Shown here piece by piece: positions 7,905-57,714 of a DNA stretch of 64,000 bases. The translations under genes were made by a program, and so were the position numbers. Source of the DNA: Escherichia coli (GTDB taxonomy: Bacteria > Pseudomonadota > Gammaproteobacteria > Enterobacterales > Enterobacteriaceae). The notes under the pieces are model-generated. The model did not search any database, was not told the DNA's origin, and worked only from the letters and a program-made list of their open reading frames with translations. The DNA lies in assembly GCF_051903065.1 (NCBI RefSeq), contig NZ_CP178438.1, one strand, 5' to 3'. Within the stretch, counting starts at the first letter, position 1, and every line of letters starts with the position of its first letter.

Positions 7905-9389
7905 TTATTCCTTATCCAGTCGTCCGACCAGACTCAGGTCGAAACTGGCACCCATGTATTTAAAATGCGGTCTGACAGAAATCGCGACCTGGTACCAGCC
8001 TGGCTCACCATCCACATCAAGTACCTCGATCTTCGCCTGACGTAATGGCCGGTGGCTGCGGACTTCGGCAGGCGGATTCTCCTGGTCGGCCACATACTGG
8101 CGAATCCAGGTGTTCAGCTCGCGCTCCAGGTCACTGCGTTCTTTCCATGAGCCAAGCTGTTCGCGCTGAATTACCTTGATGTAATGCGCTAACCTACTGA
8201 TAAAAAATAAGTATGGCAGCTGGGTGCCGAGTTTATAGTTGGTCTCCGCAGCCTTGCCTTCGGGGGTTTTGGGGAATGTTTTGGGTTTCTGCACCGAGTT
8301 GGCCGAGAAAAAGCACGCATTATCAGACCCTTTACGCATGGTCAGTGTGATAAAGCCTTCTTCCGCCAGCTCATACTCTCTCCGGTCAGTTACCAACACT
8401 TCAGTCGGAATTTTTGCCTGCATTTGCCCCATGGATTCATACAGATGCACCGGGAGGTCTTTGACTGCGCCGCCGCTGGAAGGGCCAATGATATTGGGAC
8501 ACCAGCGATATTTAGCAAAACTTTCAGCCAGGTTCGCAGCTAGTAAAAACGAGGTGTTCCCCCACAAATAAGACTCGTGACTCTGGCTGACGTCTTCATG
8601 GTAACGGAAGGTCCTGGCTGGGTTCTCATCCGGCGAGTAAGGGTGACGCAGCAGGAACCGGGGGGCGGTCAGCCCCAGGTAGCGTGAATCTTCTGATTCA
8701 CGCAAGGCACGCCAGCGGGAATAGGCCGGGCCTTCAAAGATGGCTCCTGGTTCTTTAATCCCCGGTAACTCTGTCCATGAGTCCAGACCGAAAAATTCGG
8801 ATGATACTGATGAGAGGAACGGGCTGTGCGCCATCGCACTGACCTGGCTGATATATTTCAGCAACTTCATATCCGGCGTGGTGTTCTTAAAGGCAAAGTT
8901 GCCGATTACCGCCGCCACTGGCTCACCGCCAAATTGTCCGTAACCGCTTGAATATACATGTTTGTAATATGCAGACTGCGTGATTTCAGGTGCAAATTCG
9001 AAATCATCCAGCAGTTCTTCCTGAGTGACATTCAGGAAATGGACCTTGATGTTTTCCCGTGTATCCGCGCGTTCAACCAGCAGCTTCAGCGAGCGCAGCA
9101 GGGATTCCAGTTCCTGAAACTCCGGGGCATGAATAATGGCATCCATCTGCCTGCTGGTTCGGGCATCAATATCAGCAATCATGGCGTCAACGGCCAGGAT
9201 ATTGATAGGTTCAGCGCTACTGTCACCCTGTAACATGGCGGCAATAAAGGCGCTCACGCCCTGGCGGGTGATATCGTAGCTTTCTGATTTAGGCTGGACG
9301 CGTGTTTGCGCCATGATTTCATCAAGCAGAGATGGGGGCGCGGCGGTTTGCGACGCGCTGACGGGAGCAATATCTTCCTTTACTGACAT
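7905..9389 (-). CDS. tssC: T6SS contractile sheath large subunit TssC
   Basis: 494 aa, VipB/TssC-like; immediately downstream of tssB. Confidence 0.9.
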   Translation of the reverse strand: MSVKEDIAPVSASQTAAPPSLLDEIMAQTRVQPKSESYDITRQGVSAFIAAMLQGDSSAEPINILAVDAMIADIDARTSRQMDAIIHAPEFQELESLLRSLKLLVERADTRENIKVHFLNVTQEELLDDFEFAPEITQSAYYKHVYSSGYGQFGGEPVAAVIGNFAFKNTTPDMKLLKYISQVSAMAHSPFLSSVSSEFFGLDSWTELPGIKEPGAIFEGPAYSRWRALRESEDSRYLGLTAPRFLLRHPYSPDENPARTFRYHEDVSQSHESYLWGNTSFLLAANLAESFAKYRWCPNIIGPSSGGAVKDLPVHLYESMGQMQAKIPTEVLVTDRREYELAEEGFITLTMRKGSDNACFFSANSVQKPKTFPKTPEGKAAETNYKLGTQLPYLFFISRLAHYIKVIQREQLGSWKERSDLERELNTWIRQYVADQENPPAEVRSHRPLRQAKIEVLDVDGEPGWYQVAISVRPHFKYMGASFDLSLVGRLDKE

Positions 9390-9411
9390 ACTGAAAATCC
9401 TTCTGTGAAAA

Positions 9412-9915
9412 TTATTTCTGAACGGCGATACCCAGTTCTTGGATCAGCTGCTCGCGGCTGTCTTCGTTTTCCAGTAGCGCCTGAAGTTGTGCGCGGAAGG
9501 CCGGAATATTGCCTAGTGGAGACTTAAGTGCGACCAGAGCTTCACGCAATTCGAGAAGACGTTTTATTTCTGGTACCTGGCTGGCAATATGGTCCGGAGA
9601 AAGGTCATCCATAGATTTGACTTTCAGGTTGACGTACATTTGCTCATTGGGAGCGTCACTGAGTTCAGCCGGAACAACAAACTCCCGTTCAATGTCAGCT
9701 TCTGAAATGACTGCGTTGAGGTTATAGCGGTTGATAGCAATGGCAGTTCGCTCGTCCAACGGCGTGTTATCTGGTTTCCCTTTCAGATTGCCGGTGATCA
9801 ATAAATTCAGCGGCAATTCGATATCAGCAGCCACCCCATCAACTTTTGGTGTATACCGAACGCTGATTCTTTCTTTCGGCGCGACACTGCCGCCATTGTT
9901 GTTCATTTTGCTCAT
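9412..9915 (-). CDS. tssB: T6SS contractile sheath small subunit TssB
   Basis: 167 aa, VipA/TssB-like (RISVRYTPKVDGVAADIELPLNLLITGNL...). Confidence 0.9.
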   Translation of the reverse strand: MSKMNNNGGSVAPKERISVRYTPKVDGVAADIELPLNLLITGNLKGKPDNTPLDERTAIAINRYNLNAVISEADIEREFVVPAELSDAPNEQMYVNLKVKSMDDLSPDHIASQVPEIKRLLELREALVALKSPLGNIPAFRAQLQALLENEDSREQLIQELGIAVQK

Positions 9916-10493
9916 AAAAATGTTCCCGTTCAGGCCATGAGCACAGCATTTTCGTACTGCATAAAAATACCGAAGATACCGTTTCAGTGGCAGTTAGATA
10001 ATGTAACCTTCCTTCTGTTGTGATCAGTATTCTACTCATGAAATAAAATATTAAAAGAACTATTTATATTTTAGAAAGAGATGTATTCTTCCTTGCTAAT
10101 ATATTATAGTGAAATAAATTTTGGTATTTATAGACTTGGTGAATATGATTTTACGGTCAATAAAATACCATAATATATTGATTTATATGCATTTATTAAA
10201 TTGATTAATAAGTTTTATGTATGGTTTTATCAATTAATTAATTGCTGGCAATACATCATAAGGAATTCCTTTAAGGAATGTCTTAATTGCGTGCTGGAAC
10301 GATGGCGGAGTAAGTGTCGTAATAATTTGTTTTTGACGCGGCTGTGGATTTTTATGGGGGGGGAAGATACGTTATGGATAATTGTGCTGTTGAAGTTGAT
10401 ATATTTTTAGCTTATGTGACCGTGTTCTGAAATTGACTAAAAATATATTTAAACACCATAAAAGAGTTTTTCAGTAGGTGCTAATTACGTGTG

Positions 10494-10502
10494 CCTGTAA
10501 CT
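10494..10502. repeat. 9-bp target-site duplication CCTGTAACT (left copy) of the IS903 insertion
   Basis: Identical 9-mer directly abuts both IS ends (10494-10502 and 11560-11568). Confidence 0.85.
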
Positions 10503-11559
10503 GGCTTTGTTGAATAAATCGAACTTTTGCTGAGTTGAAGGATCAGATCACGTATCTTCCCGACAACGCAGACCGTTCCGTGGCAAAGCAAAAGTTCAAA
10601 ATCACCAACTGGCCCACCTACAATAAAGCCCTCATCAACCGTGGCTCCATAACTTTCTGGCTGGATGATGAAGCTATTCAGGCCTGGTATGAGTCAGCAA
10701 CACCTTCTTCACGAGGCAGACCTCAGCGCTATTCTGACCTTGCCATCACGACTGTGCTGGTCATTAAACGCGTATTCAGGCTGACCCTGCGCGCTGCGCA
10801 GGGCTTTATTGATTCCATTTTTTCTCTGATGAACGTTCCGCTACGCTGCCCGGATTACAGCTGTGTCAGCAGGCGGGCAAAGTCGGTTAATGTCAGTTTC
10901 AAAACGCCCACCCGGGGTGAAATCGCACACCTGGTAATTGATTCCACCGGGCTGAAGGTCTTCGGTGAAGGCGAGTGGAAAGTCAAAAAGCATGGCCAGG
11001 AACGCCGCCGTATCTGGCGTAAGCTGCATCTCGCCGTTGACAGTAAAACACATGAAATCATCTGCGCTGACCTGTCGCTGAACAACGTTACGGACTCAGA
11101 GGCCTTCCCCGGGTTAATCCGGCAAACCCACCGGAAAATCAGGTCAGCCGCCGCCGATGGCGCTTACGATACCCGGCTATGTCACGATGAACTGCGGCGT
11201 AAGAAAATCAGCGCGCTTATCCCTCCCCGAAAAGGTGCGGGTTACTGGCCCGGTGAATATGCAGACCGTAACCGTGCAGTGGCTAATCAGCGAATGACCG
11301 GGAGTAATGCGCGGTGGAAATGGACAACAGATTACAACCGTCGCTCGATAGCGGAAACGGCGATGTACCGGGTAAAACAGCTGTTCGGGGGTTCACTGAC
11401 ACTGCGTGACTACGATGGTCAGGTTGCAGAGGCTATGGCCCTGGTACGAGCGCTGAACAAAATGACGAAAGCAGGTATGCCTGAAAGCGTGCGTATTGCC
11501 TGAAAACACAACCCGCTACGGGGGAGACTTACCCGAAATCTGATTTATTCAACAAAGCC
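10503..11559 (+). mobile_element. IS903-type insertion sequence (IS5 family), about 1057 bp
   Basis: Terminal inverted repeats GGCTTTGTTGAATAAATC at 10503-10520 and its reverse complement at 11542-11559; internal transposase ORF; flanked by a 9-bp direct repeat. Confidence 0.9.
10535..11503 (+). CDS. IS903-group transposase
   Basis: 322-aa ORF (TTG start in the track; true start may be slightly internal); IS5/IS903-type transposase sequence. Confidence 0.85.
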   Translation: MKDQITYLPDNADRSVAKQKFKITNWPTYNKALINRGSITFWLDDEAIQAWYESATPSSRGRPQRYSDLAITTVLVIKRVFRLTLRAAQGFIDSIFSLMNVPLRCPDYSCVSRRAKSVNVSFKTPTRGEIAHLVIDSTGLKVFGEGEWKVKKHGQERRRIWRKLHLAVDSKTHEIICADLSLNNVTDSEAFPGLIRQTHRKIRSAAADGAYDTRLCHDELRRKKISALIPPRKGAGYWPGEYADRNRAVANQRMTGSNARWKWTTDYNRRSIAETAMYRVKQLFGGSLTLRDYDGQVAEAMALVRALNKMTKAGMPESVRIA

Positions 11560-11568
11560 CCTGTAACT
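11560..11568. repeat. 9-bp target-site duplication CCTGTAACT (right copy)
   Basis: See left copy. Confidence 0.85.
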
Positions 11569-11684
11569 CGAATAAAGAAAAGGGTGTGGTTCCTGATGTG
11601 AGCCGCATCACACTCTAACCCGTCGGGGATTAACGACGGGTTGTTCGTAAAACAGCAGTTGATAATTTCACAAGGAGTTCATAA

Positions 11685-12203
11685 ATTCCAACCCCATGTT
11701 ACATTTCAATTACAGGTCAGACCCAGGGGAACATCACTGCCGGTGCTTTCACCGCAGATTCTGTCGGCAATATCTACGTGCAGGGACACGAAGATGAAAT
11801 GCTGGTGCAGGAGTTTCTGCATAACGTTACTGTTCCAACCGATCCACAGTCTGGTCAACCTTCCGGGCAGCGCGCGCACAAACCGTTCATTTTCACCGTG
11901 GCGCTGAACAAAGCCGTTCCGCTGCTGTACAACGCGCTGGCCTCCGGTGAAATGCTGCCGAAAGTGGAGCTGCACTGGTGGCGTACTTCAGTTGAAGGCA
12001 AGCAGGAGCACTACTTCACCACACGTCTTACTGACGCGACGATTGTGGACATGAACCTGCACATGCCGCACTGCCAGGACCCTGCACAGCGTGAGTTTAC
12101 GCAATTGCTCGCAGTATCACTGGCATACCGTAAGGTTGAGTGGGAGCACATCAAATCCGGTACTTCTGGTGCCGATGACTGGCGTGCACCGCTGGAAGCA
12201 TAA
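11685..12203 (+). CDS. hcp: T6SS tube protein Hcp, apparent non-ATG (ATT) start
   Basis: Frame-0 translation IPTPCYISITGQTQGNITAGAFTADSVGNIYVQGHEDEML... follows a TAA stop at 11682-11684; AGGAG at 11673-11677 is 7 nt upstream of ATT 11685. The track called only the GTG at 11778. Confidence 0.75.
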   Translation: MPTPCYISITGQTQGNITAGAFTADSVGNIYVQGHEDEMLVQEFLHNVTVPTDPQSGQPSGQRAHKPFIFTVALNKAVPLLYNALASGEMLPKVELHWWRTSVEGKQEHYFTTRLTDATIVDMNLHMPHCQDPAQREFTQLLAVSLAYRKVEWEHIKSGTSGADDWRAPLEA

Positions 12204-12215
12204 ATCTGAGTCAAC

Positions 12216-12247
12216 AACATCCTGCCTTCGTGCAGGATGTTGTTTTT
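12216..12247 (+). terminator. Rho-independent terminator-like hairpin after hcp
   Basis: AACATCCTGC-cttcg-GCAGGATGTT followed by a T-run. Confidence 0.6.
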
Positions 12248-12423
12248 GTACGTGTAAAAAATGAGTGTCAGTAAGGAGTTACGCTTACATGAGGGAGATG
12301 GCGGATGCCGGAAACCCGGGCGGTAGCGTACCTGAAAATGTAAAGATGAGTGTAACGCTGCACTGGCACCCTTTGCTGCATGGTGAGAATCATTTGGTCC
12401 GTGAATAAATCAGGGAGGTCATT

Positions 12424-14823
12424 ATGTCCTTAAAAGGTCTGCGCTTTACGCTGGAGATTGACGGCCAGGAGCCGGACACCTTTGCAGTGGTGAATTTCAG
12501 GTTAATCCAGAACCAGTCTTATCCGTTTGTGATGAGTGTGGATGTTGCCAGCGACTCTTTTATGCAGACGGCGGAGATGCTGCTGGAGAAGAAGGCGACG
12601 CTGGCCATCTGGCAGGGCGCGGTGGCGCAGCGTTATGTCACCGGCGTGGTGGCGGGTTTTGGTATGCAGGAGAACAATGGCTGGCAGATGCGTTATCACC
12701 TGCGTATTGAGCCGCCGTTATGGCGGTGCGGGCTGCGGCAGAACTTCCGTATCTTCCAGCAGCAGGATATCCGGACGATATCGGCCACGTTACTGAACGA
12801 GAACGGCGTCACGGAGTGGACGCCGCTGTTTTATGAGGACCATCCGGCGCGGGAGTTCTGTGTGCAGTACGGGGAGTCGGACCTGGCGTTTCTGGCGCGG
12901 CTGTGGGCGGAGGAGGGAATTTTCTTCTTTGAGCGGTTTGCGGCGGACAGTCCGGAGCAGAAGCTGACGCTGTGCGACGATGTGGCGGGGCTGTCACAGG
13001 CGGGAGAGCTTCCGTTTAACCCGGACACATCGGCAGGAGCGGAGACAGAGTGTGTCAGTATGTTCCGTTATGAGGCGTATGTCCGCCCGTCGTCGGTGCA
13101 GAGCCAGGATTACACGTTTAAGGTGCCGGACTGGCCGGGGATGTATGAGCAGCAGGGTGAGAACCTGAACGGACAGCTGGCGCAGTATGAGATATTTGAT
13201 TATCCGGGAAGGTTCAAGGATGAACAGCACGGTAAGGATTTCACGCTGTACCAGATGGAGAGCCTGCGCAGTGATGCGGAAAAGGCCACAGGGCAGAGTA
13301 ATTCACCGAAGCTGTGGCCGGGAACGCGGTTTACGCTGACGGGGCATCCGCAGAAGATGCTGAACCGTGAATGGCAGGTGGTACAGAGCATTCTGTCAGG
13401 GGACCAGCCGCAGGCGCTGCACGGCAGCCAGGGGAGAGGAACCACGCTGGGAAATCAGTTAGAGGTGATACCGGCGGACCGGACGTGGCGTCCACGGCTG
13501 CAAAGCAAACCGAAGGTGGACGGGCCGCAGAGTGCCATTGTGACCGGGCCGAAGGGTGAGGAGATATTCTGCGACGAACATGGCCGGGTACGGGTGAAGT
13601 TCCACTGGGACCGTTATCACGGGATGACGGAGGCGAGTTCATGCTGGGTGCGGGTATCACAGGCGTGGGCGGGGCCGGGGTTTGGTAACCTGGCGATACC
13701 GCGGGTGGGTCAGGAGGTGATTGTTGACTTCCTGAACGGAGACCCGGACCAGCCGCTGGTCATGGGCCGGACGTACCATGAGGACAACCGTTCGCCGGGG
13801 AGCCTGCCGGGGACGAAGACGCAGATGACGATACGGTCGAAGACCTATAAAGGAAGCGGATTTAACGAGTTGCGCTTTGAGGACGCCACCAGTAATGAGC
13901 AGGTGTATATCCATGCGCAGAAGAACATGGATACGGAGGTGCTCAACGACCGGACAACGGATGTGAAACATGACCATACGGAAACCATCGGTAACGACCA
14001 GAAGATAACGGTGGTGAAGGGTCAGACGGTTCAGGTCGGTACAAAAAAAGAGGGGGGCCACGACCAGAGTATCACGGTGGCGAATGACCGGTGCATCACG
14101 GTACGTAATGACCAGACGCTGCAGGTGACGAATGACCGGACGGTGAGCGTGAGTCACGATGACGGTCTGTACGTAAAAAATGACCGAAAGGTGACGGTGA
14201 AAGGGAAGCAGGAGCATAAGACGACGGGTAACCACATCAGCCTGGTGGAGGGGAAGCACAGCCTGGAGGTGAAGGGGGACCTGGCGGAGAAGGTGAGTGG
14301 CGCGCTGGGGATAAAAGTGGACGGGGATATCGTGCTGGAGAGCAGCAGCCGGATAAGCCTGAAGGTGGGTGGCTCGTTTATCGTCATTCAGCCGGGCGGA
14401 GTGGATATTGCCGGGCCGAAGATAAACCTGAACGGTGGGGGCAGTGCGGGGACACCGGTGGGGACGATGCAGCCGGCGGTGCTGGAGGCTCCGGAGGATG
14501 AGAGCAGTGATGATGGCAGTGATGACTCCGGAGAGGATAGTGGCAATCCCGCAGGGAGTGACGGAGGAGGTGATGGCGGTGACGATGAAGATGATCCTGA
14601 AAAATATACCCTCCAGTTCCATTTTACGGACGATGACGGGATACCGTATTCAGAGACGCAGTATATTGCCTTTTTTGAGGATGGCACACAGACGCGTGGT
14701 GAAACAGACAGAGAGGGATATACAGAAATATTTTATACAGATACAGCACAGGAAATTAAAGTCCAATTGTTATTTTCGGATGCTTTTTATATTGAGCCGG
14801 AGGGGCATTATGGCAGGGAATAA
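12424..14823 (+). CDS. vgrG: T6SS spike protein VgrG with acidic linker and C-terminal extension domain
   Basis: 799 aa; gp27/gp5-like body, repetitive beta-helix (VKNDRKVTV...), acidic Asp/Glu/Ser-rich linker, then a ~65-aa C-terminal domain. Confidence 0.9.
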   Translation: MSLKGLRFTLEIDGQEPDTFAVVNFRLIQNQSYPFVMSVDVASDSFMQTAEMLLEKKATLAIWQGAVAQRYVTGVVAGFGMQENNGWQMRYHLRIEPPLWRCGLRQNFRIFQQQDIRTISATLLNENGVTEWTPLFYEDHPAREFCVQYGESDLAFLARLWAEEGIFFFERFAADSPEQKLTLCDDVAGLSQAGELPFNPDTSAGAETECVSMFRYEAYVRPSSVQSQDYTFKVPDWPGMYEQQGENLNGQLAQYEIFDYPGRFKDEQHGKDFTLYQMESLRSDAEKATGQSNSPKLWPGTRFTLTGHPQKMLNREWQVVQSILSGDQPQALHGSQGRGTTLGNQLEVIPADRTWRPRLQSKPKVDGPQSAIVTGPKGEEIFCDEHGRVRVKFHWDRYHGMTEASSCWVRVSQAWAGPGFGNLAIPRVGQEVIVDFLNGDPDQPLVMGRTYHEDNRSPGSLPGTKTQMTIRSKTYKGSGFNELRFEDATSNEQVYIHAQKNMDTEVLNDRTTDVKHDHTETIGNDQKITVVKGQTVQVGTKKEGGHDQSITVANDRCITVRNDQTLQVTNDRTVSVSHDDGLYVKNDRKVTVKGKQEHKTTGNHISLVEGKHSLEVKGDLAEKVSGALGIKVDGDIVLESSSRISLKVGGSFIVIQPGGVDIAGPKINLNGGGSAGTPVGTMQPAVLEAPEDESSDDGSDDSGEDSGNPAGSDGGGDGGDDEDDPEKYTLQFHFTDDDGIPYSETQYIAFFEDGTQTRGETDREGYTEIFYTDTAQEIKVQLLFSDAFYIEPEGHYGRE

Positions 14824-15613
14824 TAATACTAGTGGGACTTCACAACCCGAGTCGCAAGTATGTGTAGTACCGCAAAAAATTACAAATAAATTTAAAATAA
14901 TGATGAGTAAGGCTTGTAAAGCACAGAAAATGGTTTTATTGAAAAGAGCAGATGATATTATGTCATGGGAGGGGGAACAACAACGAGATTTTATTAAAGT
15001 TTTTGGCCTTAAAGGCGAGGACATTATAAAAATCAGAAAAGTTGGGGAAGATACTGGGAAACGAATGCAAGCGAGACTATTCATAATGGATGGCATCAGA
15101 CGAATAATGACGATTGCAAATGGTTTGACGATCGAAAGCTATAAAGATTATACGAACTGCAATGAATTTGCTGCTTTTATTAGTCCACATCTTGATCCTC
15201 CTTACATTGTAAATATCGGAGCGCATTTTGAATACAGACATGGTATAAAACAGTCGGTTACAGGTAGAGACTCTCATGTAAGTACACTTTGCCATGAAAT
15301 GTCCCATATATTTTGGTATTGGGGTGACAATCAAAAAGGTGGTATGTGGACTCAGGATTATACGGGTATTAATAAGTTCGCAACAAGTAATAAGGATGAA
15401 GTTAGCTATGAGAAACATGTTTCAGTGGCTAATGATCTGGTTACATTGCGTAAAGATCAGTTATTTGAGAATGCATATAATGTTGAAAGATATTTTTATA
15501 TAAAATTAAATGATGAAGATATTGAAGCTCAAGATGAGAATATGTTAGCAAAAAAAGTAGAGGATAAAATAAAAGAGATAGAAAAATGTTTTGATGAGTT
15601 GACGGGGAAATAA
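14810..15613 (+). CDS. Putative T6SS cargo effector, HExxH zinc-metallopeptidase-like
   Basis: ATG at 14810 overlaps the vgrG stop; AT-rich; HEMSH motif encoded at 15293-15307. The track's longer 14435 start lies inside vgrG and is rejected. Confidence 0.55.
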   Translation: MAGNNNTSGTSQPESQVCVVPQKITNKFKIMMSKACKAQKMVLLKRADDIMSWEGEQQRDFIKVFGLKGEDIIKIRKVGEDTGKRMQARLFIMDGIRRIMTIANGLTIESYKDYTNCNEFAAFISPHLDPPYIVNIGAHFEYRHGIKQSVTGRDSHVSTLCHEMSHIFWYWGDNQKGGMWTQDYTGINKFATSNKDEVSYEKHVSVANDLVTLRKDQLFENAYNVERYFYIKLNDEDIEAQDENMLAKKVEDKIKEIEKCFDELTGK

Positions 15614-15614
15614 G

Positions 15615-16364
15615 ATGAAGAGGTTGGCTTTCTATAATCTAAATTATGTTGTACTGATGGTTTTTTTTCTTTGTTTTTTGCCATTATCTATTGCAATTGC
15701 AATAGATAATGAGAATCTTTTTGTAAAAAAATACAGATTCGGTTTTGAACGAAGAAGTGACAATGGGAAACCAATTATTTATCTTAGCCATAATTTAGCG
15801 CCAGAGGAAAATATAAGTAATGAATTAACAAATGATGTTGTTGTTAAATTGGTGGTTAAGCCACATGCTGAAAATATTTTAGCTACTATAACTTTTTATA
15901 ACAGTAGTACTAAATCGTATTTTCTCCCCAGAATATATTATCCAAAGAACTTCCAAAAAGGAAATGGAGATGTATTTGATGCTTTGTGTGATGACGAATT
16001 CTTGATTACATCAGGAAATATTAGCTTAGACTATCTAGGAGGCTTTTGTCCCTTTGAGCTTGATTTGAATTTGAGCCGATGGGTGGAAATTACGGCAGGT
16101 AAAAAAATATCTTTTGATGTAAAATTGAATGATATGCATTCATTTCTCCCCAGTTTAAATAATTATCATATAAAAACATTAAACTACAAACTTGTTAGGA
16201 GAAAATGGTTTGTATTAAAATCAATTAATGAAACATTCCTCTCTATTTTGATGAAAAGATACTCATGTAATGAATATGATTTTAGAGCTATATCATTTAG
16301 TGGAGAGGGATGTGATAATTATGAATTTGATAAAAATACGTTTTTTTTGTTAATCAAATATTAG
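15615..16364 (+). CDS. Signal-peptide protein, candidate cognate immunity protein
   Basis: Start 1 nt after the effector stop; N-terminal hydrophobic signal (VVLMVFFLCFLPLSIAIA); AT-rich. Confidence 0.5.
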   Translation: MKRLAFYNLNYVVLMVFFLCFLPLSIAIAIDNENLFVKKYRFGFERRSDNGKPIIYLSHNLAPEENISNELTNDVVVKLVVKPHAENILATITFYNSSTKSYFLPRIYYPKNFQKGNGDVFDALCDDEFLITSGNISLDYLGGFCPFELDLNLSRWVEITAGKKISFDVKLNDMHSFLPSLNNYHIKTLNYKLVRRKWFVLKSINETFLSILMKRYSCNEYDFRAISFSGEGCDNYEFDKNTFFLLIKY

Positions 16365-16600
16365 ATAAAGATGATGAGCAACATTCTGTTCATATTAGGT
16401 CTAATGAATTTTCCATCAATATCGATGGAAGCTTGGTAAAGCAACCTTATTGATTAAAATGTATCGCAGGTTTTATTTTCTGTAATGCTGGTGCATGTGC
16501 GTAAATATTTCTTAAGAGCCGGAAACACCTCTTCCGCCTTTATCGACGATAAACCTACCGCCAGAACCGGTGATGCCATTGACTGCGGTGGCGTGGTTAA

Positions 16601-21912: not shown

Positions 21913-22416
21913 ATGGTAGATATTGTCGAGGCCGATAAAACGGATATTTATTTCATTCAGGAGAGTGTTTATGGTAAAATCGGGCTGCCAGCTTTTGGTA
22001 ATACAATAGGACCATCTGCACAGCAGGTTGTTAAAAAGGTATTCGCTGTCGTTAAAGAACGAGATAAGACACATGCAAAACAGAGATTATTGTTGGAATA
22101 TAATGGTAACAAACTCTGGATGAATGCTATTGATGGCAGTGAAGCTATCCTACCAATAGAATTTTCTAAGCGATACGAACTTTCATTATTCAATACTACT
22201 AATTTTGGAGAAGATCCTTTTCCTGATGTTAATTTATATAATAATATGAAATCAAGTTTTTTTGTAAGGTTTGGTGGAACATCCCATCCCGAGGCTTGGG
22301 CTATTTATAATGCAAGTACGAAAGAGGTTAAATATATAGAAACTGCAAGAGAAATTGATAAAATATTCAGTGATTTTAACTTGAGTGGTACATTGCCAAT
22401 TCACATTGGTCAATGA
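21913..22416 (+). CDS. Hypothetical protein (AT-rich, unknown function)
   Basis: 167-aa ORF with GGAGGG RBS; no family recognised. Confidence 0.5.
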   Translation: MVDIVEADKTDIYFIQESVYGKIGLPAFGNTIGPSAQQVVKKVFAVVKERDKTHAKQRLLLEYNGNKLWMNAIDGSEAILPIEFSKRYELSLFNTTNFGEDPFPDVNLYNNMKSSFFVRFGGTSHPEAWAIYNASTKEVKYIETAREIDKIFSDFNLSGTLPIHIGQ

Positions 22417-22482
22417 TTTTTTAAATTGTGTGATTAAATAATTGAACATTAGTGATGATTTATAGCATCATTATTCTATAAC

Positions 22483-22995
22483 ATGAATAAACGGATTGAA
22501 TGTGTTATGTTAAAAATGAGTTTATACGTAATAATATTGTTATTTTCCTTTCAGATTAGTGCAGCCATTACTAGCAAGGAAAGTGAGGTTGTTTCACCAT
22601 TATTAATGGATGTTAATTCTTCACTAACAATGCAAAATATTTCTGAATTATCCACATCATCGGAACCATCGCAACAGGGGGTATTTCCTGTAATATGTAC
22701 TCGACTTCATCCTGGCTCCGTAATGAAACGCCAGTTATTAACCGGCTGGGGGCCTGTTTTTATAATTGGTGATGATCCTTTTTCTCTGCGCTGGATGAGT
22801 GAACATCTGGAGATCCTTAAATCGCTAAATGCCCTTGGTTTGGTTGTTAATGTTGAATCAGTAGAACGAATGGAGGTATTACAGCAGCGGGCTGATGGGT
22901 TATTGTTATTGCCAGTTATCTGCGATAATTTCGTGCAAACTCTGCAATTAAATGCTTATCCGGTATTAATCACAGAGATGGAAATATCACAATGA
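22483..22995 (+). CDS. Hypothetical secreted protein (signal peptide)
   Basis: 170-aa ORF; N-terminal hydrophobic signal MSLYVIILLFSFQISAAIT; AT-rich. Confidence 0.5.
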   Translation: MNKRIECVMLKMSLYVIILLFSFQISAAITSKESEVVSPLLMDVNSSLTMQNISELSTSSEPSQQGVFPVICTRLHPGSVMKRQLLTGWGPVFIIGDDPFSLRWMSEHLEILKSLNALGLVVNVESVERMEVLQQRADGLLLLPVICDNFVQTLQLNAYPVLITEMEISQ

Positions 22996-27389: not shown

Positions 27390-27968
27390 ATGTACCAGGA
27401 TCTTATTCGTAACGAACTGAACGAAGCGGCGGAAACGCTGGCTAACTTTTTAAAAGATGACGCCAATATTCACGCCATTCAGCGCGCGGCGGTCCTGTTA
27501 GCAGACAGCTTTAAAGCCGGTGGCAAAGTGCTTTCCTGCGGCAACGGCGGTTCCCATTGCGACGCTATGCACTTTGCCGAAGAGTTGACCGGTCGCTACC
27601 GTGAAAACCGTCCGGGCTACCCGGCGATTGCTATTTCTGACGTTAGTCATATTTCATGCGTCGGTAACGATTTCGGTTTCAATGATATTTTCTCCCGTTA
27701 CGTTGAAGCGGTAGGTCGCGAAGGCGATGTACTGCTGGGGATCTCCACCTCCGGTAACTCTGCAAACGTGATCAAAGCGATCGCAGCGGCGCGTGAGAAG
27801 GGAATGAAAGTGATCACCCTGACCGGTAAAGACGGCGGCAAAATGGCTGGCACGGCGGATATCGAAATTCGCGTACCGCACTTTGGTTATGCCGACCGCA
27901 TTCAGGAGATTCACATTAAAGTGATCCATATCCTGATCCAGTTGATTGAAAAAGAGATGGTTAAGTAA
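27390..27968 (+). CDS. gmhA: Phosphoheptose isomerase GmhA
   Basis: 192 aa from the internal start [17 protein letters not shown]... Confidence 0.95.
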
Positions 27969-28130
27969 GTCTGGCGTAGGCCGGATAAGACGTTTACGCC
28001 GCATCCGGCAATTGTGCACCGATGCCTGATGCGACGCTGACGCGTCTTATCATGCCTACAAATCTGTACGCGAACCGTAGGCCGAATAATGCGTTCACGC
28101 CGCATCCGACCTGAAAATTCTTAAATCAAT
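27969..28130. repeat. REP/BIME cluster
   Basis: Repeated palindromic units GCCGGATAAG...GCCGCATCCGGCA and GCCTGATGCGACGCTGACGCGTCTTATCA. Confidence 0.85.
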
Positions 28131-28176
28131 CTTCGCCGGGGGCCATGCGCTCCCGCTGTTGTGGAGGTTACCCATG

Positions 28177-28941
28177 TGCGAATTGCTCGGGATGAGCGCC
28201 AACGTCCCTACCGATATCTGCTTTAGTTTCACCGGTCTGGTGCAGCGTGGTGGTGGAACCGGGCCACATAAAGATGGCTGGGGCATTACCTTTTACGAAG
28301 GTAAAGGCTGTCGCACATTTAAAGATCCGCAACCCAGCTTTAACTCACCTATCGCCAAACTGGTCCAGGACTACCCGATAAAATCCTGTTCGGTGGTGGC
28401 TCATATTCGCCAGGCTAATCGGGGCGAGGTGGCGCTGGAAAATACTCACCCATTTACCCGCGAGTTATGGGGGCGTAACTGGACTTATGCCCATAACGGA
28501 CAACTGACGGGCTACAAATCACTGGAAACCGGCAACTTCCGCCCGGTAGGCGAAACCGACAGTGAAAAAGCCTTCTGCTGGCTCCTGCATAAATTAACGC
28601 AGCGTTACCCGCGCACACCGGGCAACATGGCGGCGGTATTTAAATATATCGCCTCACTGGCGGATGAACTGCGGCAGAAGGGCGTTTTCAACATGCTGCT
28701 TTCGGACGGGCGCTATGTAATGGCGTATTGCTCGACTAATTTACACTGGATCACCCGCCGCGCGCCGTTTGGCGTGGCAACGTTGCTGGATCAGGATGTG
28801 GAAATCGACTTCAGCTCGCAGACCACACCGAATGATGTGGTCACGGTGATTGCGACACAGCCGCTGACGGGCAATGAAACCTGGCAAAAAATTATGCCAG
28901 GCGAATGGCGCTTATTTTGCCTCGGGGAGCGTGTAGTTTGA
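28177..28941 (+). CDS. yafJ: Class II glutamine amidotransferase-like protein YafJ
   Basis: MCELLGMS... N-terminal Cys nucleophile; 255 aa. Confidence 0.9.
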
Positions 28942-29652
28942 TGCCAGCTGTGGTTGCACAACTTCGTGGCTTAACGGCTTGCTGACCACGTAACGACCAT
29001 TGACCACAGAAACGGTCGGTGGCTTACGGGTTTGCTCAAAGTAGTCGTAACCCGGCTTCAGTTGCTCCCAGAAGTCCTTAAAGTTGGAATATTTGTGGCG
29101 CTTCATATTAGCGTCGGTCATGCGGAACGGGTAAATGCTCACTTGCACGCTCGGCTGACCAAATACCAGTGCGCCAGTAACGAACTGGAAAATCTCGTCA
29201 ATGCCCTGATTGGTCATCGCGTAGCAGCCGATGGAAACACAATCGCCGTGGATCATCAGGTATTTCCCTTCATAACCATGCGCACGGTCATAGGCATTGG
29301 GGAAACCAATATTAATCGCTTTGTAGTAACGGCTGTCTGGTTTTAACTGATTACGCTGGACGCTATAAAACCCTTCCGGGCTTTTGAAATCGCCCTGACG
29401 CTGTTTTGGCCCTAAGCCGCCGGAATATTTACAGATTTTATAGCTGTCGAGCAGTTGATATTGCTCGCCCATTTTGACGTAGAGATCGAGCGTACGTTCT
29501 TCCTTGAAGATCTGGATGTAGACAGGGGATCCCATCAACTGCTGCTTATACTCTTTGCTCACTGGCGTGGTCGAGCTACTGCTGCCCAGCAAACCGGCAA
29601 ACGAAACGCACGGGATCAACAACATCGCAAGAATTAATGCGATTTTACGCAT
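28912..29652 (-). CDS. yafK: L,D-transpeptidase-like periplasmic protein YafK
   Basis: 246 aa with signal peptide, YkuD-type. Confidence 0.9.
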
Positions 29653-56526: not shown

Positions 56527-57714
56527 TCAGCTAAATAAATATGTAATAGCATAAGGCGTAAGTAAAAAGTAGAACCTAAATGTAAGATATAAGCCACATA
56601 AAACTATAATTCCTAATGAGGCAAAAACAACTTTCTGAACAAGCAATCTTGTGGTTAAACTATCAAATGTATCCTTTATATCTTCGTAAATAGCCTTGAA
56701 GTTATATTCTGCTTGTTGTTTTTTATGATTTAACTCATCATTTATTGCTGTTAAAGTTTGCCATTGATTAAATAGAACAAATAGAATCATAATAGTGAAG
56801 AACAATGCACCCAACACTACAGCTGTATTTATTAATGCTTGACTATCCCAACCATTAGCCTGCTTCATTTGAGTCGCAACGATAATTGTTGCGACGGGGA
56901 TACCTAATATCTGATTTTGTATGTCACTGAATACTTTATGTATTTTTCCCATCTCTTCTATTTTGGCTACTCGTAACTGATCCAGTATTTTCTCGTAAGA
57001 AAAACCAGAAACGAATACTTTGTATCCTTTTTGATAACTTTCATAAAGTTGTCCTAAATCCCTTAACATGAAGGAAAAAGAGGTTTCTTTAGTTTTAGAT
57101 TCACATGATGATTTTATGCTACTTGCTAAAATAGTAAGTTTTTGATCTTTATGCGTATCTTCTGCAAAGTTTGCGATCAAATTATGAATCAGATCTCCAT
57201 TAACATTCATAAGATCATCGCTAGAATAATTTACTGGAATTTTTAGTACGTTGGATTCGACGAATACCAATTCAAAATTTGTTTCATCTAAATAAGCAGA
57301 ACAATCTTTGAATAAAGTAATTAAGCTCAAAACATCTCTGTACTTGGATATAATAGCAGGCGACTTTTTATCCCTGTTGTGATAATTAAGTTCGATTATA
57401 AAGAAGTTACTGGCTTCCTTTATCCTATTTTTAGGATTTTTTAAATACTCATTAAAAGAGAAATGTAGCTGCCCCAATCGTAATTTGGGGGGGGTTATAT
57501 GTAAGGTTATAGTTTGGCCTAACTCAATGTTGCCAGATTCAAGGGTGATGCCAAAATCATGGGGATTCTCTGTGATATCGTTGATGATGTCACAGAGCTC
57601 CTCGTTTGAAAGAATGAGTGATGCTTCAGATAGGGTACCTGCAAATGTAGCGGCCTTGTAAATAGTCACTAAGTCTTTGAAGGTTCTCTGATTGTTACTG
57701 CTCATCCTCTTCAC
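56527..57714 (-). CDS. Hypothetical protein with two C-terminal transmembrane helices (cassette gene 2)
   Basis: 395 aa; hydrophobic segments ALINTAVVLGALFFTIMILFVLF and VVFASLGIIVLCGLYLTFRFYFLL; 20-bp overlap with the upstream gene; AT-rich. Confidence 0.6.
   Translation of the reverse strand: MKRMSSNNQRTFKDLVTIYKAATFAGTLSEASLILSNEELCDIINDITENPHDFGITLESGNIELGQTITLHITPPKLRLGQLHFSFNEYLKNPKNRIKEASNFFIIELNYHNRDKKSPAIISKYRDVLSLITLFKDCSAYLDETNFELVFVESNVLKIPVNYSSDDLMNVNGDLIHNLIANFAEDTHKDQKLTILASSIKSSCESKTKETSFSFMLRDLGQLYESYQKGYKVFVSGFSYEKILDQLRVAKIEEMGKIHKVFSDIQNQILGIPVATIIVATQMKQANGWDSQALINTAVVLGALFFTIMILFVLFNQWQTLTAINDELNHKKQQAEYNFKAIYEDIKDTFDSLTTRLLVQKVVFASLGIIVLCGLYLTFRFYFLLTPYAITYLFS

Follow-up and report, generated by a model that had tools for sequence, protein, structure and literature searches.

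The DNA between tssB and hcp studied here is probably a two-way promoter spacer of a T6SS-2 cluster that is silenced by H-NS, with the IS903B element in it uncoupling hcp as one lesion among several in a decaying, silent system. T6SS-2 is the most widespread T6SS of E. coli and is notoriously silent in the laboratory. The window (the whole stretch of 64,000 nucleotides that was analysed) was found to be 100% identical to the chromosome of E. coli 23CRST027 (NZ_AP045789.1). As a locus the region is ordinary and already known, being the divergent tssB/hcp promoter spacer of the common E. coli T6SS-2 cluster, which has been studied previously. Knowing the silencing DNA, and how strains lose or bypass its control, aids the reading of T6SS gene content in clinical genomes.

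Gene order and annotation place the cluster within the aspV-yafV island (tRNA-Asp, aspV). The flanking genes, and a hairpin beyond hcp, are as follows.

tssB (vipA), 9412-9915, minus strand: ORF of 167 aa (Pfam T6SS_VipA, E=1e-44; WP_000041479.1), the first gene of the leftward structural operon.
hcp (hcp2B type), 11685-12203, plus strand: Pfam T6SS_HCP; the RefSeq CDS WP_001142963.1 starts there, with an ATT start codon.
Intrinsic-terminator-like hairpin, 12213-12250, plus strand: directly 3' of hcp, a 13-bp perfect stem followed by TTTTTG.

The original prediction described 9916-10502 as a divergent control region of the T6SS cluster. This is borne out by the two opposed operons that diverge from the spacer, tssB-tssC-tssE-tssF-tssG leftward and the hcp-vgrG-effector operon rightward, and by the promoter, EMSA and RT-PCR primers published for APEC DE719, which map onto it with 0-2 mismatches. 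The 587 bp in question are exactly the DNA from the tssB start codon to the left end of IS903B (10503). Before the insertion the intergenic region measured 703 bp (9916-10502 plus 11569-11684), and its 116 bp nearest hcp had been left out of the prediction. The intergenic allele is present in 551-552 of 5426 complete E. coli genomes, with O157 carrying a divergent allele at the same site; this distribution and the accessory nature of the island agree with the horizontal acquisition that had been proposed. Spacer identity is 92% to APEC O18, which is near-identical in the hcp-proximal 270 bp, and 98% to EAEC 042. Two ORFs were rejected as genes, both lacking a Pfam match: a 69-aa ORF at 10201-10410 (plus strand), where alleles differ by substitutions and indels, which speaks against coding, and an ORF at 9839-10039 (minus strand), which is out of frame with tssB in a region with indels among alleles. 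No known RNA family was found in the spacer by an Rfam scan of 9300-12500 (E<=1), the two chance-level matches both lying outside it.

An extreme A+T content of roughly 75-80% had been predicted for the whole 587 bp. The actual value is 69.0%, against a window average of 50.6%, and the predicted range applies only to a core at 10020-10260. The 587 bp nevertheless lie 2.6 SD above the mean (SD 7.1% for windows of this length), and only 1.5% of such windows reach 69%, the other places with at least this value being at ~15.2-16.6 kb, at 22.0-22.7 kb and in two overlapping stretches at 56.5-57.5 kb. The many A/T tracts also predicted are present, as 24 A/T-only runs of at least 6 bases. From tssB towards hcp, the following parts can be distinguished.

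tssB-proximal conserved block, 9916-10015, minus strand: ~59% A+T; presumed tssB leader or core promoter.
AT-rich core, 10020-10260, no strand: 78.8% A+T; candidate H-NS nucleation or silencing region.
Variable stretch of ordinary composition, 10261-10380, no strand: 57.5% A+T, with a G8 run at 10356-10363.

No other 241 bp of the 64 kb are as AT-rich as the core (z=3.5; 0.06% of windows), in which TpA steps have a frequency of 16.3%, the window value being 4.8%. Near-matches to the H-NS motif TCGATAAATT (up to 2 mismatches) occur in the spacer at 8.5 per kb vs. 1.5 per kb, and the core holds four of the six as well as both IHF-consensus matches; weak sigma-70-like matches were also found in it on both strands by consensus scan. 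Among alleles the core is the most variable part of the spacer, yet its A+T is kept, and across five lineages A+T remains at 67-71% even where identity drops to ~59%. The tssB-proximal block (58.8% A+T over 9916-10000) is nearly invariant in seven E. coli alleles and can still be made out in E. whittamii, Pseudocitrobacter and O157 Sakai, in which the remaining spacer has diverged. The G run also varies: ECNB21-M121 shares the G8 of the window, 042 has G6 and B2-type alleles have G5T. A second AT-rich patch (76-78% A+T in 50-bp windows) lies at ~10399-10465. On neither strand of the spacer was there a GG-N10-GC match of the sigma-54 type expected for some T6SS clusters, and the spacer contains no match to a Fur box or to the Fis consensus.

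The insertion itself is well defined.

IS903B, 10503-11559, plus strand: 1057 bp, with a transposase gene at 10535-11503 in the same orientation as hcp.
Left copy of the 9-bp target-site duplication CCTGTAACT, 10494-10502, no strand: present as a single copy in empty-site alleles.
Right copy of CCTGTAACT, 11560-11568, no strand.

The element ends in perfect 18-bp terminal inverted repeats (GGCTTTGTTGAATAAATC), and its transposase has DDE_Tnp_1 and DDE_Tnp_1_5 domains (RefSeq 'IS5-like element IS903B family transposase'). As the 9-bp duplication is intact, IS903B inserted by simple transposition. It is absent from 548 of the 552 genomes with this allele and was found in the spacer in only two, which are sister isolates from one place. 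No obvious palindrome was seen by eye in the 21 bp around the target duplication.

According to the original prediction, this was a region that IS903 had targeted. IS903B did enter the intergenic region, but it sits on the shoulder facing hcp, ~240 bp away from the AT-rich core; flanks of 25-250 bp on either side of the insertion point have an A+T of 58-61%. Targeting of AT-rich or H-NS-bound DNA by IS903B is plausible, because H-NS-bound DNA regionally captures IS5-family elements, IS903 included (PMC11335895). Re-analysis of the IS903 sites of Swingle et al. placed 19 of 32 in H-NS-bound DNA in the wild type and 11 of 33 in the absence of H-NS (PMC11335895). One insertion, in a chromosome with 21 places matching a query that was one-third IS903B, is insufficient to demonstrate targeting. 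That the insertion was instead a chance by-product of IS903B expansion in this lineage is quite possible, falling a little short of an even chance. The same query matched 15 places in the empty-site strain ECNB21-M121, which together with the confinement of the insertion to two sister isolates fits such an expansion, as does the readier survival under selection of intergenic than of intragenic insertions. The modest A+T at the insertion point also speaks for chance, although weakly, since capture is regional; the re-analysed IS903 sites, and the independent entry of two other IS families into the same 66 bp (see below), speak for capture.

Whichever way it arrived, IS903B lies between two sets of putative hcp signals, downstream of the first and upstream of the second as well as of hcp, while the tssB side of the spacer is physically untouched. 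The first set is listed here.

Published hcp2B promoter fragment, distal part, 10399-10502, plus strand: placed by APEC DE719 primer mapping; hardly any variation between E. coli alleles.
Perfect 12-bp inverted repeat, 10399-10410 and 10437-10448: within the hcp2B promoter fragment.
Candidate CpxR-P binding determinant, 10409-10432: 24 bp, equivalent of the tested APEC site.
-35-like TTGACT, 10433-10438: adjoins the CpxR determinant.

CpxR-P was reported to shift the Phcp2B fragment of APEC DE719, but not a probe starting at TTGACTAAAAAT (PMC6534853). The EMSA-F primer maps to 10409-10429 with 2 mismatches and the deletion probe without CpxR-P binding starts at 10433. The candidate determinant reads GTGAC in the window for GTAAT in the tested APEC sequence (2 substitutions), and no match to GTAAA-N5-GTAAA with up to 2 mismatches was found at 10409-10432. 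A consensus scan of 10400-10502 gave no good plus-strand promoter, and promoter positions in the spacer are putative.

The second set of signals belongs to what is presumed to be the hcp leader.

Perfect CRP core consensus TGTGA-N6-TCACA (TGTGAGCCGCATCACA), 11597-11612, no strand: candidate site, 73 bp upstream of the hcp start.
Conserved hairpin AACCCGUCG-GGGAUUAA-CGACGGGUU, 11617-11642, plus strand: GGA in the loop; presumed hcp leader.
hcp Shine-Dalgarno AAGGAG, 11672-11677, plus strand: 7 nt before the start codon; kept in all lineages compared.

The CRP core is the sole exact match in the 64 kb (0.06 expected per window; present in 6 of 100 shuffles) and is invariant in seven E. coli alleles, with one mismatch each in E. 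whittamii and Pseudocitrobacter. No promoter was found at a canonical distance from it: the nearest -10-like element, GATAAT (11661-11666), would put CRP at ~-68.5 and has no usable -35. An hcp-near promoter with the -35 TTGTTC, served by the CRP site, was rejected, its spacer being only 14 nt. The CRP half-sites may instead form part of a predicted RNA helix. The 39-nt segment 11612-11650, which holds the hairpin, has a predicted fold of -17.4 kcal/mol, and 88% of cells are paired in the hairpin across five lineages, compared with 32-52% in slid controls. There is one two-sided compensatory change and there are several wobble changes; this covariation evidence is thin, as wider footprinting with a TssB query gave just three loci (E. 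whittamii, a Pseudocitrobacter MAG and a 285-bp 'Moellerella' contig, the last close to the E. coli B2-type allele). The hairpin was rejected as an intrinsic terminator, having no U-run after the stem. The CRP core and leader hairpin are testable candidate regulatory elements, undescribed for this allele in the literature cited on it.

Natural IS insertions in the spacer are rare (~3 events in 552 genomes) but clustered. Besides IS903B, two further breakpoints were identified.

IS5 breakpoint, CTAA at 10437-10440: strain S1-ISR-02-A.
IS1 breakpoint, between 10476 and 10477: strain SCU-176.

The three independent events fall within 10437-10502, i.e., 66 bp of the 703-bp spacer (P ~0.025 under a uniform null, for what is a very small sample), and hcp and all three transposase genes share one orientation. 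At bglR of E. coli K-12, IS1 and IS5 activate an H-NS-silenced, CRP-dependent promoter. By analogy, insertions between an AT-rich silencer and a CRP-dependent hcp promoter could activate the hcp-vgrG-effector operon, either by relieving H-NS repression or by driving the operon through read-through, in the manner of IS1 and IS5 at bglR. This explanation is considered unlikely. The clustering and shared orientation are in its favour, as is the fact that the window's single perfect CRP core follows just downstream of the breakpoints. So is strain S1-ISR-02-A, in which every core tss gene is annotated as intact alongside IS5; that IS5 activates the bgl operon, which H-NS silences, is itself established, according to work cited in PMC11335895. 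The accompanying damage points the other way: in the present lineage hcp then lost its ATG and tssM has a stop, and the IS1 event of SCU-176 removed the spacer together with 46 nt from the start of tssB and truncated vgrG. Furthermore, no canonical promoter fits the CRP site, the half-sites of which may belong to the RNA helix, and should the promoter be the TTGACT beside the CpxR determinant, each of the three insertions would have destroyed it or separated it from hcp. The sample of three events is, moreover, very small. Slightly less likely still is an extended version, in which 10437-10502 is a recurrent bglR-like IS landing pad that uncouples the hcp-vgrG-effector operon from silencing, with the GGA motifs of the hairpin and Shine-Dalgarno adding a CsrA checkpoint. 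If true, the landing pad would allow natural E. coli populations to turn on T6SS-2 effector expression by mutation.

The reading preferred here, H-NS silencing of the spacer with IS903B as a lesion, draws on its composition and on experiments in related strains. The traits of H-NS-silenced promoters are present (high A+T, TpA-rich tracts and location in accessory DNA), and that the spacer would be kept silent by H-NS is well supported by homology. In APEC DE719, inactivation of H-NS raises clpV2, hcp2A and hcp2B (PMC5874247), and in EHEC EDL933 deletion of hns raises T6SS genes, one of them ~60-fold (PMC5363993). The EHEC hcp3-tssB spacer is described as an H-NS-bound bidirectional promoter in earlier work, as cited in PMC13141884. 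This is the sole direct binding evidence cited and it concerns an allele 59% identical to that of the window; H-NS occupancy of the spacer in the present strain is inferred from the work on APEC DE719, whose allele belongs to the same family, and on the orthologous EHEC spacer. The least probable alternative is that the spacer, being long, non-coding and part of an accessory island, became AT-rich by passive compositional drift, with no role of its A+T in silencing and with regulation only via gene-near sites. It is compatible with the core being the least conserved part among alleles and with nearby effector and immunity genes being equally AT-rich, but is hard to reconcile with A+T staying at 67-71% in lineages diverged to ~59% identity, with a several-fold enrichment of TpA steps and H-NS-motif near-matches and with derepression of both operons in hns mutants of APEC and EHEC (PMC5874247, PMC5363993).

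In the mechanism proposed, the ~240-bp core (79% A+T, TpA-rich) most likely nucleates H-NS filaments or bridges, which would hold both divergent promoters off under laboratory conditions. Specific signals would reside in the gene-proximal blocks, which are lower in A+T and better conserved than the core. On the hcp side these may comprise the CpxR-P determinant at 10409-10432 with the adjoining TTGACT, followed by a leader of ~200 nt with the CRP-like core, the conserved GGA-loop hairpin and the Shine-Dalgarno. IS903B would uncouple hcp-vgrG from the upstream control DNA, and hcp expression would be expected to be lost through it. The element is oriented as hcp, and read-through transcription could still express the gene.

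T6SS-2 in 23CRST027 is probably decaying, since IS903B cuts hcp off, hcp has an ATT start and tssM, which lies outside the window, is annotated with an internal stop in the genome record. The ATT start is common to 23CRST027 and its sister strain 23CRST031 and is private to their lineage, the start being ATG in six further E. coli alleles, Sakai, E. whittamii, Pseudocitrobacter and the closest empty-site strain, ECNB21-M121. IS903B would most simply be one of several lesions in a system that was already silent, and the T6SS-2 cluster of 23CRST027 should not be scored as functional. The vgrG gene is annotated as 'frameshifted', yet an open 799-aa ORF was found at 12424-14823.

Among known systems, the closest is the vipA2/hcp2B region ('Phcp2B') of T6SS2 in APEC DE719 (PMC6534853, PMC5874247), which has the same cluster type and allele family as the window; both operons are reported there to be derepressed upon H-NS inactivation, and CpxR-P binds the equivalent of 10409-10432. 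The window differs in having GTGAC for GTAAT in that determinant, G8 for G5T, ATT as the hcp start and IS903B 62 bp downstream of the CpxR determinant. The 't6sP' region of EHEC O157:H7 (z0264/tssB to hcp3; PMC5363993, PMC13141884) lies in the same aspV-yafV island with the same gene order, and its spacer of 696 bp and 67% A+T is one for which H-NS repression was shown by hns deletion. It shares with the window an Hcp ~95% identical, the hairpin, the Shine-Dalgarno, the 'GTGAGCYGCATC' block and the terminator after hcp, the hairpin at 12213-12250 being in the same position as the EHEC terminator 'h3R region I' (PMC13141884). However, the spacer is only 59% and TssB ~58% identical, and the EHEC CRP core has lost its right half by deletion, and EHEC transcription start sites and binding data are not transferable base for base to the window. 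The T6SS of Salmonella SPI-6 is also silenced by H-NS (Brunet et al. 2015, as cited in PMC5363993 and PMC5874247); the principle of an AT-rich accessory-T6SS promoter under H-NS is the same and the cluster is different, the likeness being drawn from the literature alone. The likeness to bglR consists in AT-rich upstream DNA followed by IS1/IS5-family insertions, a CRP core and the gene; here, however, the CRP-promoter geometry is non-canonical and the accompanying lesions suggest loss and not gain of function. Finally, IS903B in this strain and IS5 in another, both in a region expected to be H-NS-bound, resemble the 'transposon capture' by H-NS (PMC11335895), although these are single natural events as opposed to population mapping, and the insertion is at the edge of an AT tract and not at its peak.

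The 3.2 kb surrounding the tssB-hcp spacer are a 100% match to the chromosome of strain 23CRST027 (NZ_AP045789.1), isolated from human faeces in Ecuador; record coordinates equal window coordinates plus 552759. The annotated neighbourhood places a type VI secretion system (T6SS) cluster between tRNA-Asp (aspV) and yafV/ivy/fadE, with its genes annotated as follows:

Minus strand: tssM, tssA, vasI, tssH, tssL, tssK, tssJ, tagH, tssG, tssF, tssE, tssC, tssB
Plus strand: hcp, vgrG, M35 peptidase, Tle1/Tli1-type effector and immunity genes

TssB (9412–9915), TssC, TssE, TssF, Hcp, VgrG and the DDE transposase are supported by Pfam. Immediately 3' of hcp, at 12213–12250, lies a strong terminator-like hairpin in which a T run comes after a perfect 13-bp stem. 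It matches "h3R region I", a terminator that has been reported from the hcp3-vgrG3 gap of EHEC.

The segment 9916–10502, bounded by the tssB start codon and the left end of an IS element, was originally predicted to be roughly 75–80% A+T. This is real yet overstated: the value fits the core at 10020–10260 (78.8%, more than in any other 241-bp stretch of the window, z=3.5; TpA frequency 16.3% vs 4.8%), but the segment as a whole has 69.0%, placing it in the top 1.5% of 587-bp windows (mean 50.6%, SD 7.1%). At that scale it has equals at ~15240–16560, 21990–22740 and 56530–57520; the first two cover T6SS cargo genes (M35 peptidase with a hypothetical gene, and tla1/tli1) and the third falls inside a prophage. 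Composition across the segment is patchy, with 59% A+T in the 85 bp nearest tssB, 57.5% at 10261–10380 and a second AT-rich patch at about 10399–10465. A G8 homopolymer at 10356–10363, within 10261–10380, differs in length among alleles (G8, G6, G5T); it may be prone to slippage or, in certain records, an artefact of assembly.

The spacer allele was found in 551–552 of 5426 complete E. coli genomes and was chromosomal in every case. Primers published for "T6SS2" of the APEC strain DE719 (PMC6534853) can be placed on the window: the forward primer for the hcp2B promoter and EMSA corresponds to 10409–10429 with two mismatches, 10433 is the first base of the deletion probe, the reverse primer covers the hcp start, and the RT-PCR primers for vipA, hcp2B and vgrG fall within tssB, hcp and vgrG. 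This identifies the spacer as the vipA2/hcp2B divergent region, on which APEC work has already been published. When H-NS was inactivated in DE719, clpV2, hcp2A and hcp2B increased; iron and Fur were without effect, and the serum response differed between the two operons (PMC5874247). The hcp2B fragment was shifted by CpxR-P, whereas a probe lacking its first 24 bp (equivalent to 10409–10432) was not, and deletion of cpxR lowered hcp2B, vgrG and xmtU, with no such effect on vipA or clpV (PMC6534853). The original reading, a probable nucleoid-protein-silenced divergent control region, largely holds; this regulatory reading is already known in the literature for the family.

Conservation was compared among seven E. 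coli alleles, E. whittamii, one Pseudocitrobacter MAG and O157. Conserved blocks are gene-proximal (9916–10015 on the tssB side; 10406–10502 and 11569–11684 on the hcp side), and variation is greatest in the AT-rich core, although A+T is 67–71% in every lineage. This fits, without proving, selection that acts on composition or on the structure of the DNA rather than on sequence, as would be required for H-NS binding. The spacer has 8.5 near-matches per kb to the H-NS high-affinity motif, vs 1.5 per kb in the window, and the core holds two matches to the IHF consensus. A 285-bp Moellerella wisconsensis contig (NZ_LGAA01000080.1), carrying the tssB start and 193 bp of spacer, closely resembles the E. 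coli B2-type allele by eye; the assembly in question was probably contaminated with E. coli DNA.

The hcp side of the spacer contains the following elements:

10399–10410 and 10437–10448, arms of a perfect 12-bp inverted repeat, ATATATTTTTAG / CTAAAAATATAT, bracketing the CpxR determinant
10409–10432, CpxR determinant, by equivalence with APEC
10433–10438, TTGACT
10494–10502, IS903B target; with 11560–11568, the 9-bp direct duplication CCTGTAACT flanking IS903B
10503–11559, IS903B, 1057 bp, with perfect 18-bp terminal repeats
11597–11612, perfect CRP core TGTGA-N6-TCACA, TGTGAGCCGCATCACA, 73 bp upstream of hcp
11617–11642, hairpin with GGGAUUAA in its loop
11672–11677, Shine-Dalgarno AAGGAG of hcp

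A consensus scan of 10400–10502 gave no convincing plus-strand promoter. The CpxR determinant directly adjoins TTGACT, which favours a candidate hcp promoter there with a leader of ~200 nt; a promoter nearer hcp served by the CRP site would have non-canonical geometry. The CRP core is the only perfect one in the 64-kb window (0.06 expected) and is invariant among the E. coli alleles. BProm-predicted CRP sites have been mentioned for the S. sonnei spacer (PMC10924462); experimental work on the core of the window allele was not found in the literature. The 39-nt segment with the hairpin has a predicted fold of -17.4 kcal/mol, and across five lineages pairing holds in 88% of cells, vs 32–52% with the partner slid, with one compensatory change. 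The hairpin carries GGA in its loop, and a second GGA follows about 46 nt later in the Shine-Dalgarno sequence; together they resemble paired CsrA sites, a layout that would fit the reported role of CsrA as a negative regulator of hcp3 in EHEC (PMC13141884).

Excision of IS903B with one duplication copy restores a 703-bp spacer that is 98.6% identical to that of EAEC 042. ECNB21-M121, the closest empty-site strain, differs from the restored sequence at only three positions, two of them in the spacer and the third in the hcp start codon. The transposition was therefore a simple one, and recent. The same insertion is present in the sister isolate 23CRST031, with its transposase frameshifted by a 1-bp deletion (position 11107). 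IS903B has the CpxR determinant and TTGACT on its upstream side and the CRP core, hairpin and hcp on its downstream side, so that an extra 1066 bp separate hcp-vgrG from the CpxR site and the AT-rich core, whereas the tssB side is unaltered.

The original prediction held that IS903 had targeted this AT-rich region. Local A+T at the insertion point is only 58–61%, but regional capture is supported by the literature: re-analysed IS903 sites of Swingle et al. fell in H-NS-bound DNA in 19/32 cases in wild type vs 11/33 without H-NS, and IS5-family elements in general show H-NS-linked regional capture (PMC11335895). A chance hit is also quite possible, since the chromosome has 21 places matching a query of which one-third is IS903B; these suggest an IS903B expansion in 23CRST027. 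The spacer is disrupted in only 4/552 genomes, by three independent events:

10494–10502, IS903B, two sister isolates
10437–10440 (CTAA, inside TTGACT), IS5, S1-ISR-02-A
between 10476 and 10477, IS1, SCU-176; rest of spacer and first 46 nt of tssB lost

The IS5 target is the first four bases of the right arm of the inverted repeat. The three breakpoints share 66 bp (10437–10502) of the 703-bp spacer (P ~0.025, uniform null), and all three transposase genes are oriented as hcp. This clustering directly upstream of the CRP core is reminiscent of bglR and, together with the intact core tss genes of S1-ISR-02-A, keeps alive the idea that the insertions may de-silence hcp as at bglR; the hcp start codon, a tssM stop and the SCU-176 deletions point to inactivation instead.

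The hcp start codon (11685–11687) is ATT in 23CRST027 and 23CRST031, and ATG in all others compared (six further E. coli alleles, O157 Sakai, E. whittamii, Pseudocitrobacter and ECNB21-M121). As an initiation codon AUU works very poorly in E. coli; the RefSeq hcp CDS is still annotated from the ATT position. An internal stop is annotated in tssM (NZ_AP045789.1 544953–548480, upstream of the window), and vgrG is marked as frameshifted in RefSeq, yet a 799-aa vgrG ORF is open at 12424–14823. The simplest reading is a silent T6SS-2 cluster gathering lesions, as described for T6SS-2 of S. sonnei (PMC10924462). The IS903B position and the ATT start are new, strain-specific items, and the IS cluster, CRP core and leader hairpin are small new leads.

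In EHEC O157 the cluster sits in the same island, and its gene order is the same. Deletion of hns derepresses it (PMC5363993), and a further paper, citing Kim et al. 2022, treats the tssB-hcp3 spacer as a bidirectional promoter that is bound by H-NS and has several transcription start sites (PMC13141884). These data back the principle rather than base-level positions, because the O157 spacer and TssB are only 59% and about 58% identical to those of the window. Hcp, in contrast, is about 95% identical, and these values suggest that a recombination boundary falls within the spacer, in its hcp-proximal part. Window 9412–12203 and O157 Sakai 27937–29652 thus show mosaic divergence between two aspV T6SS-2 alleles.
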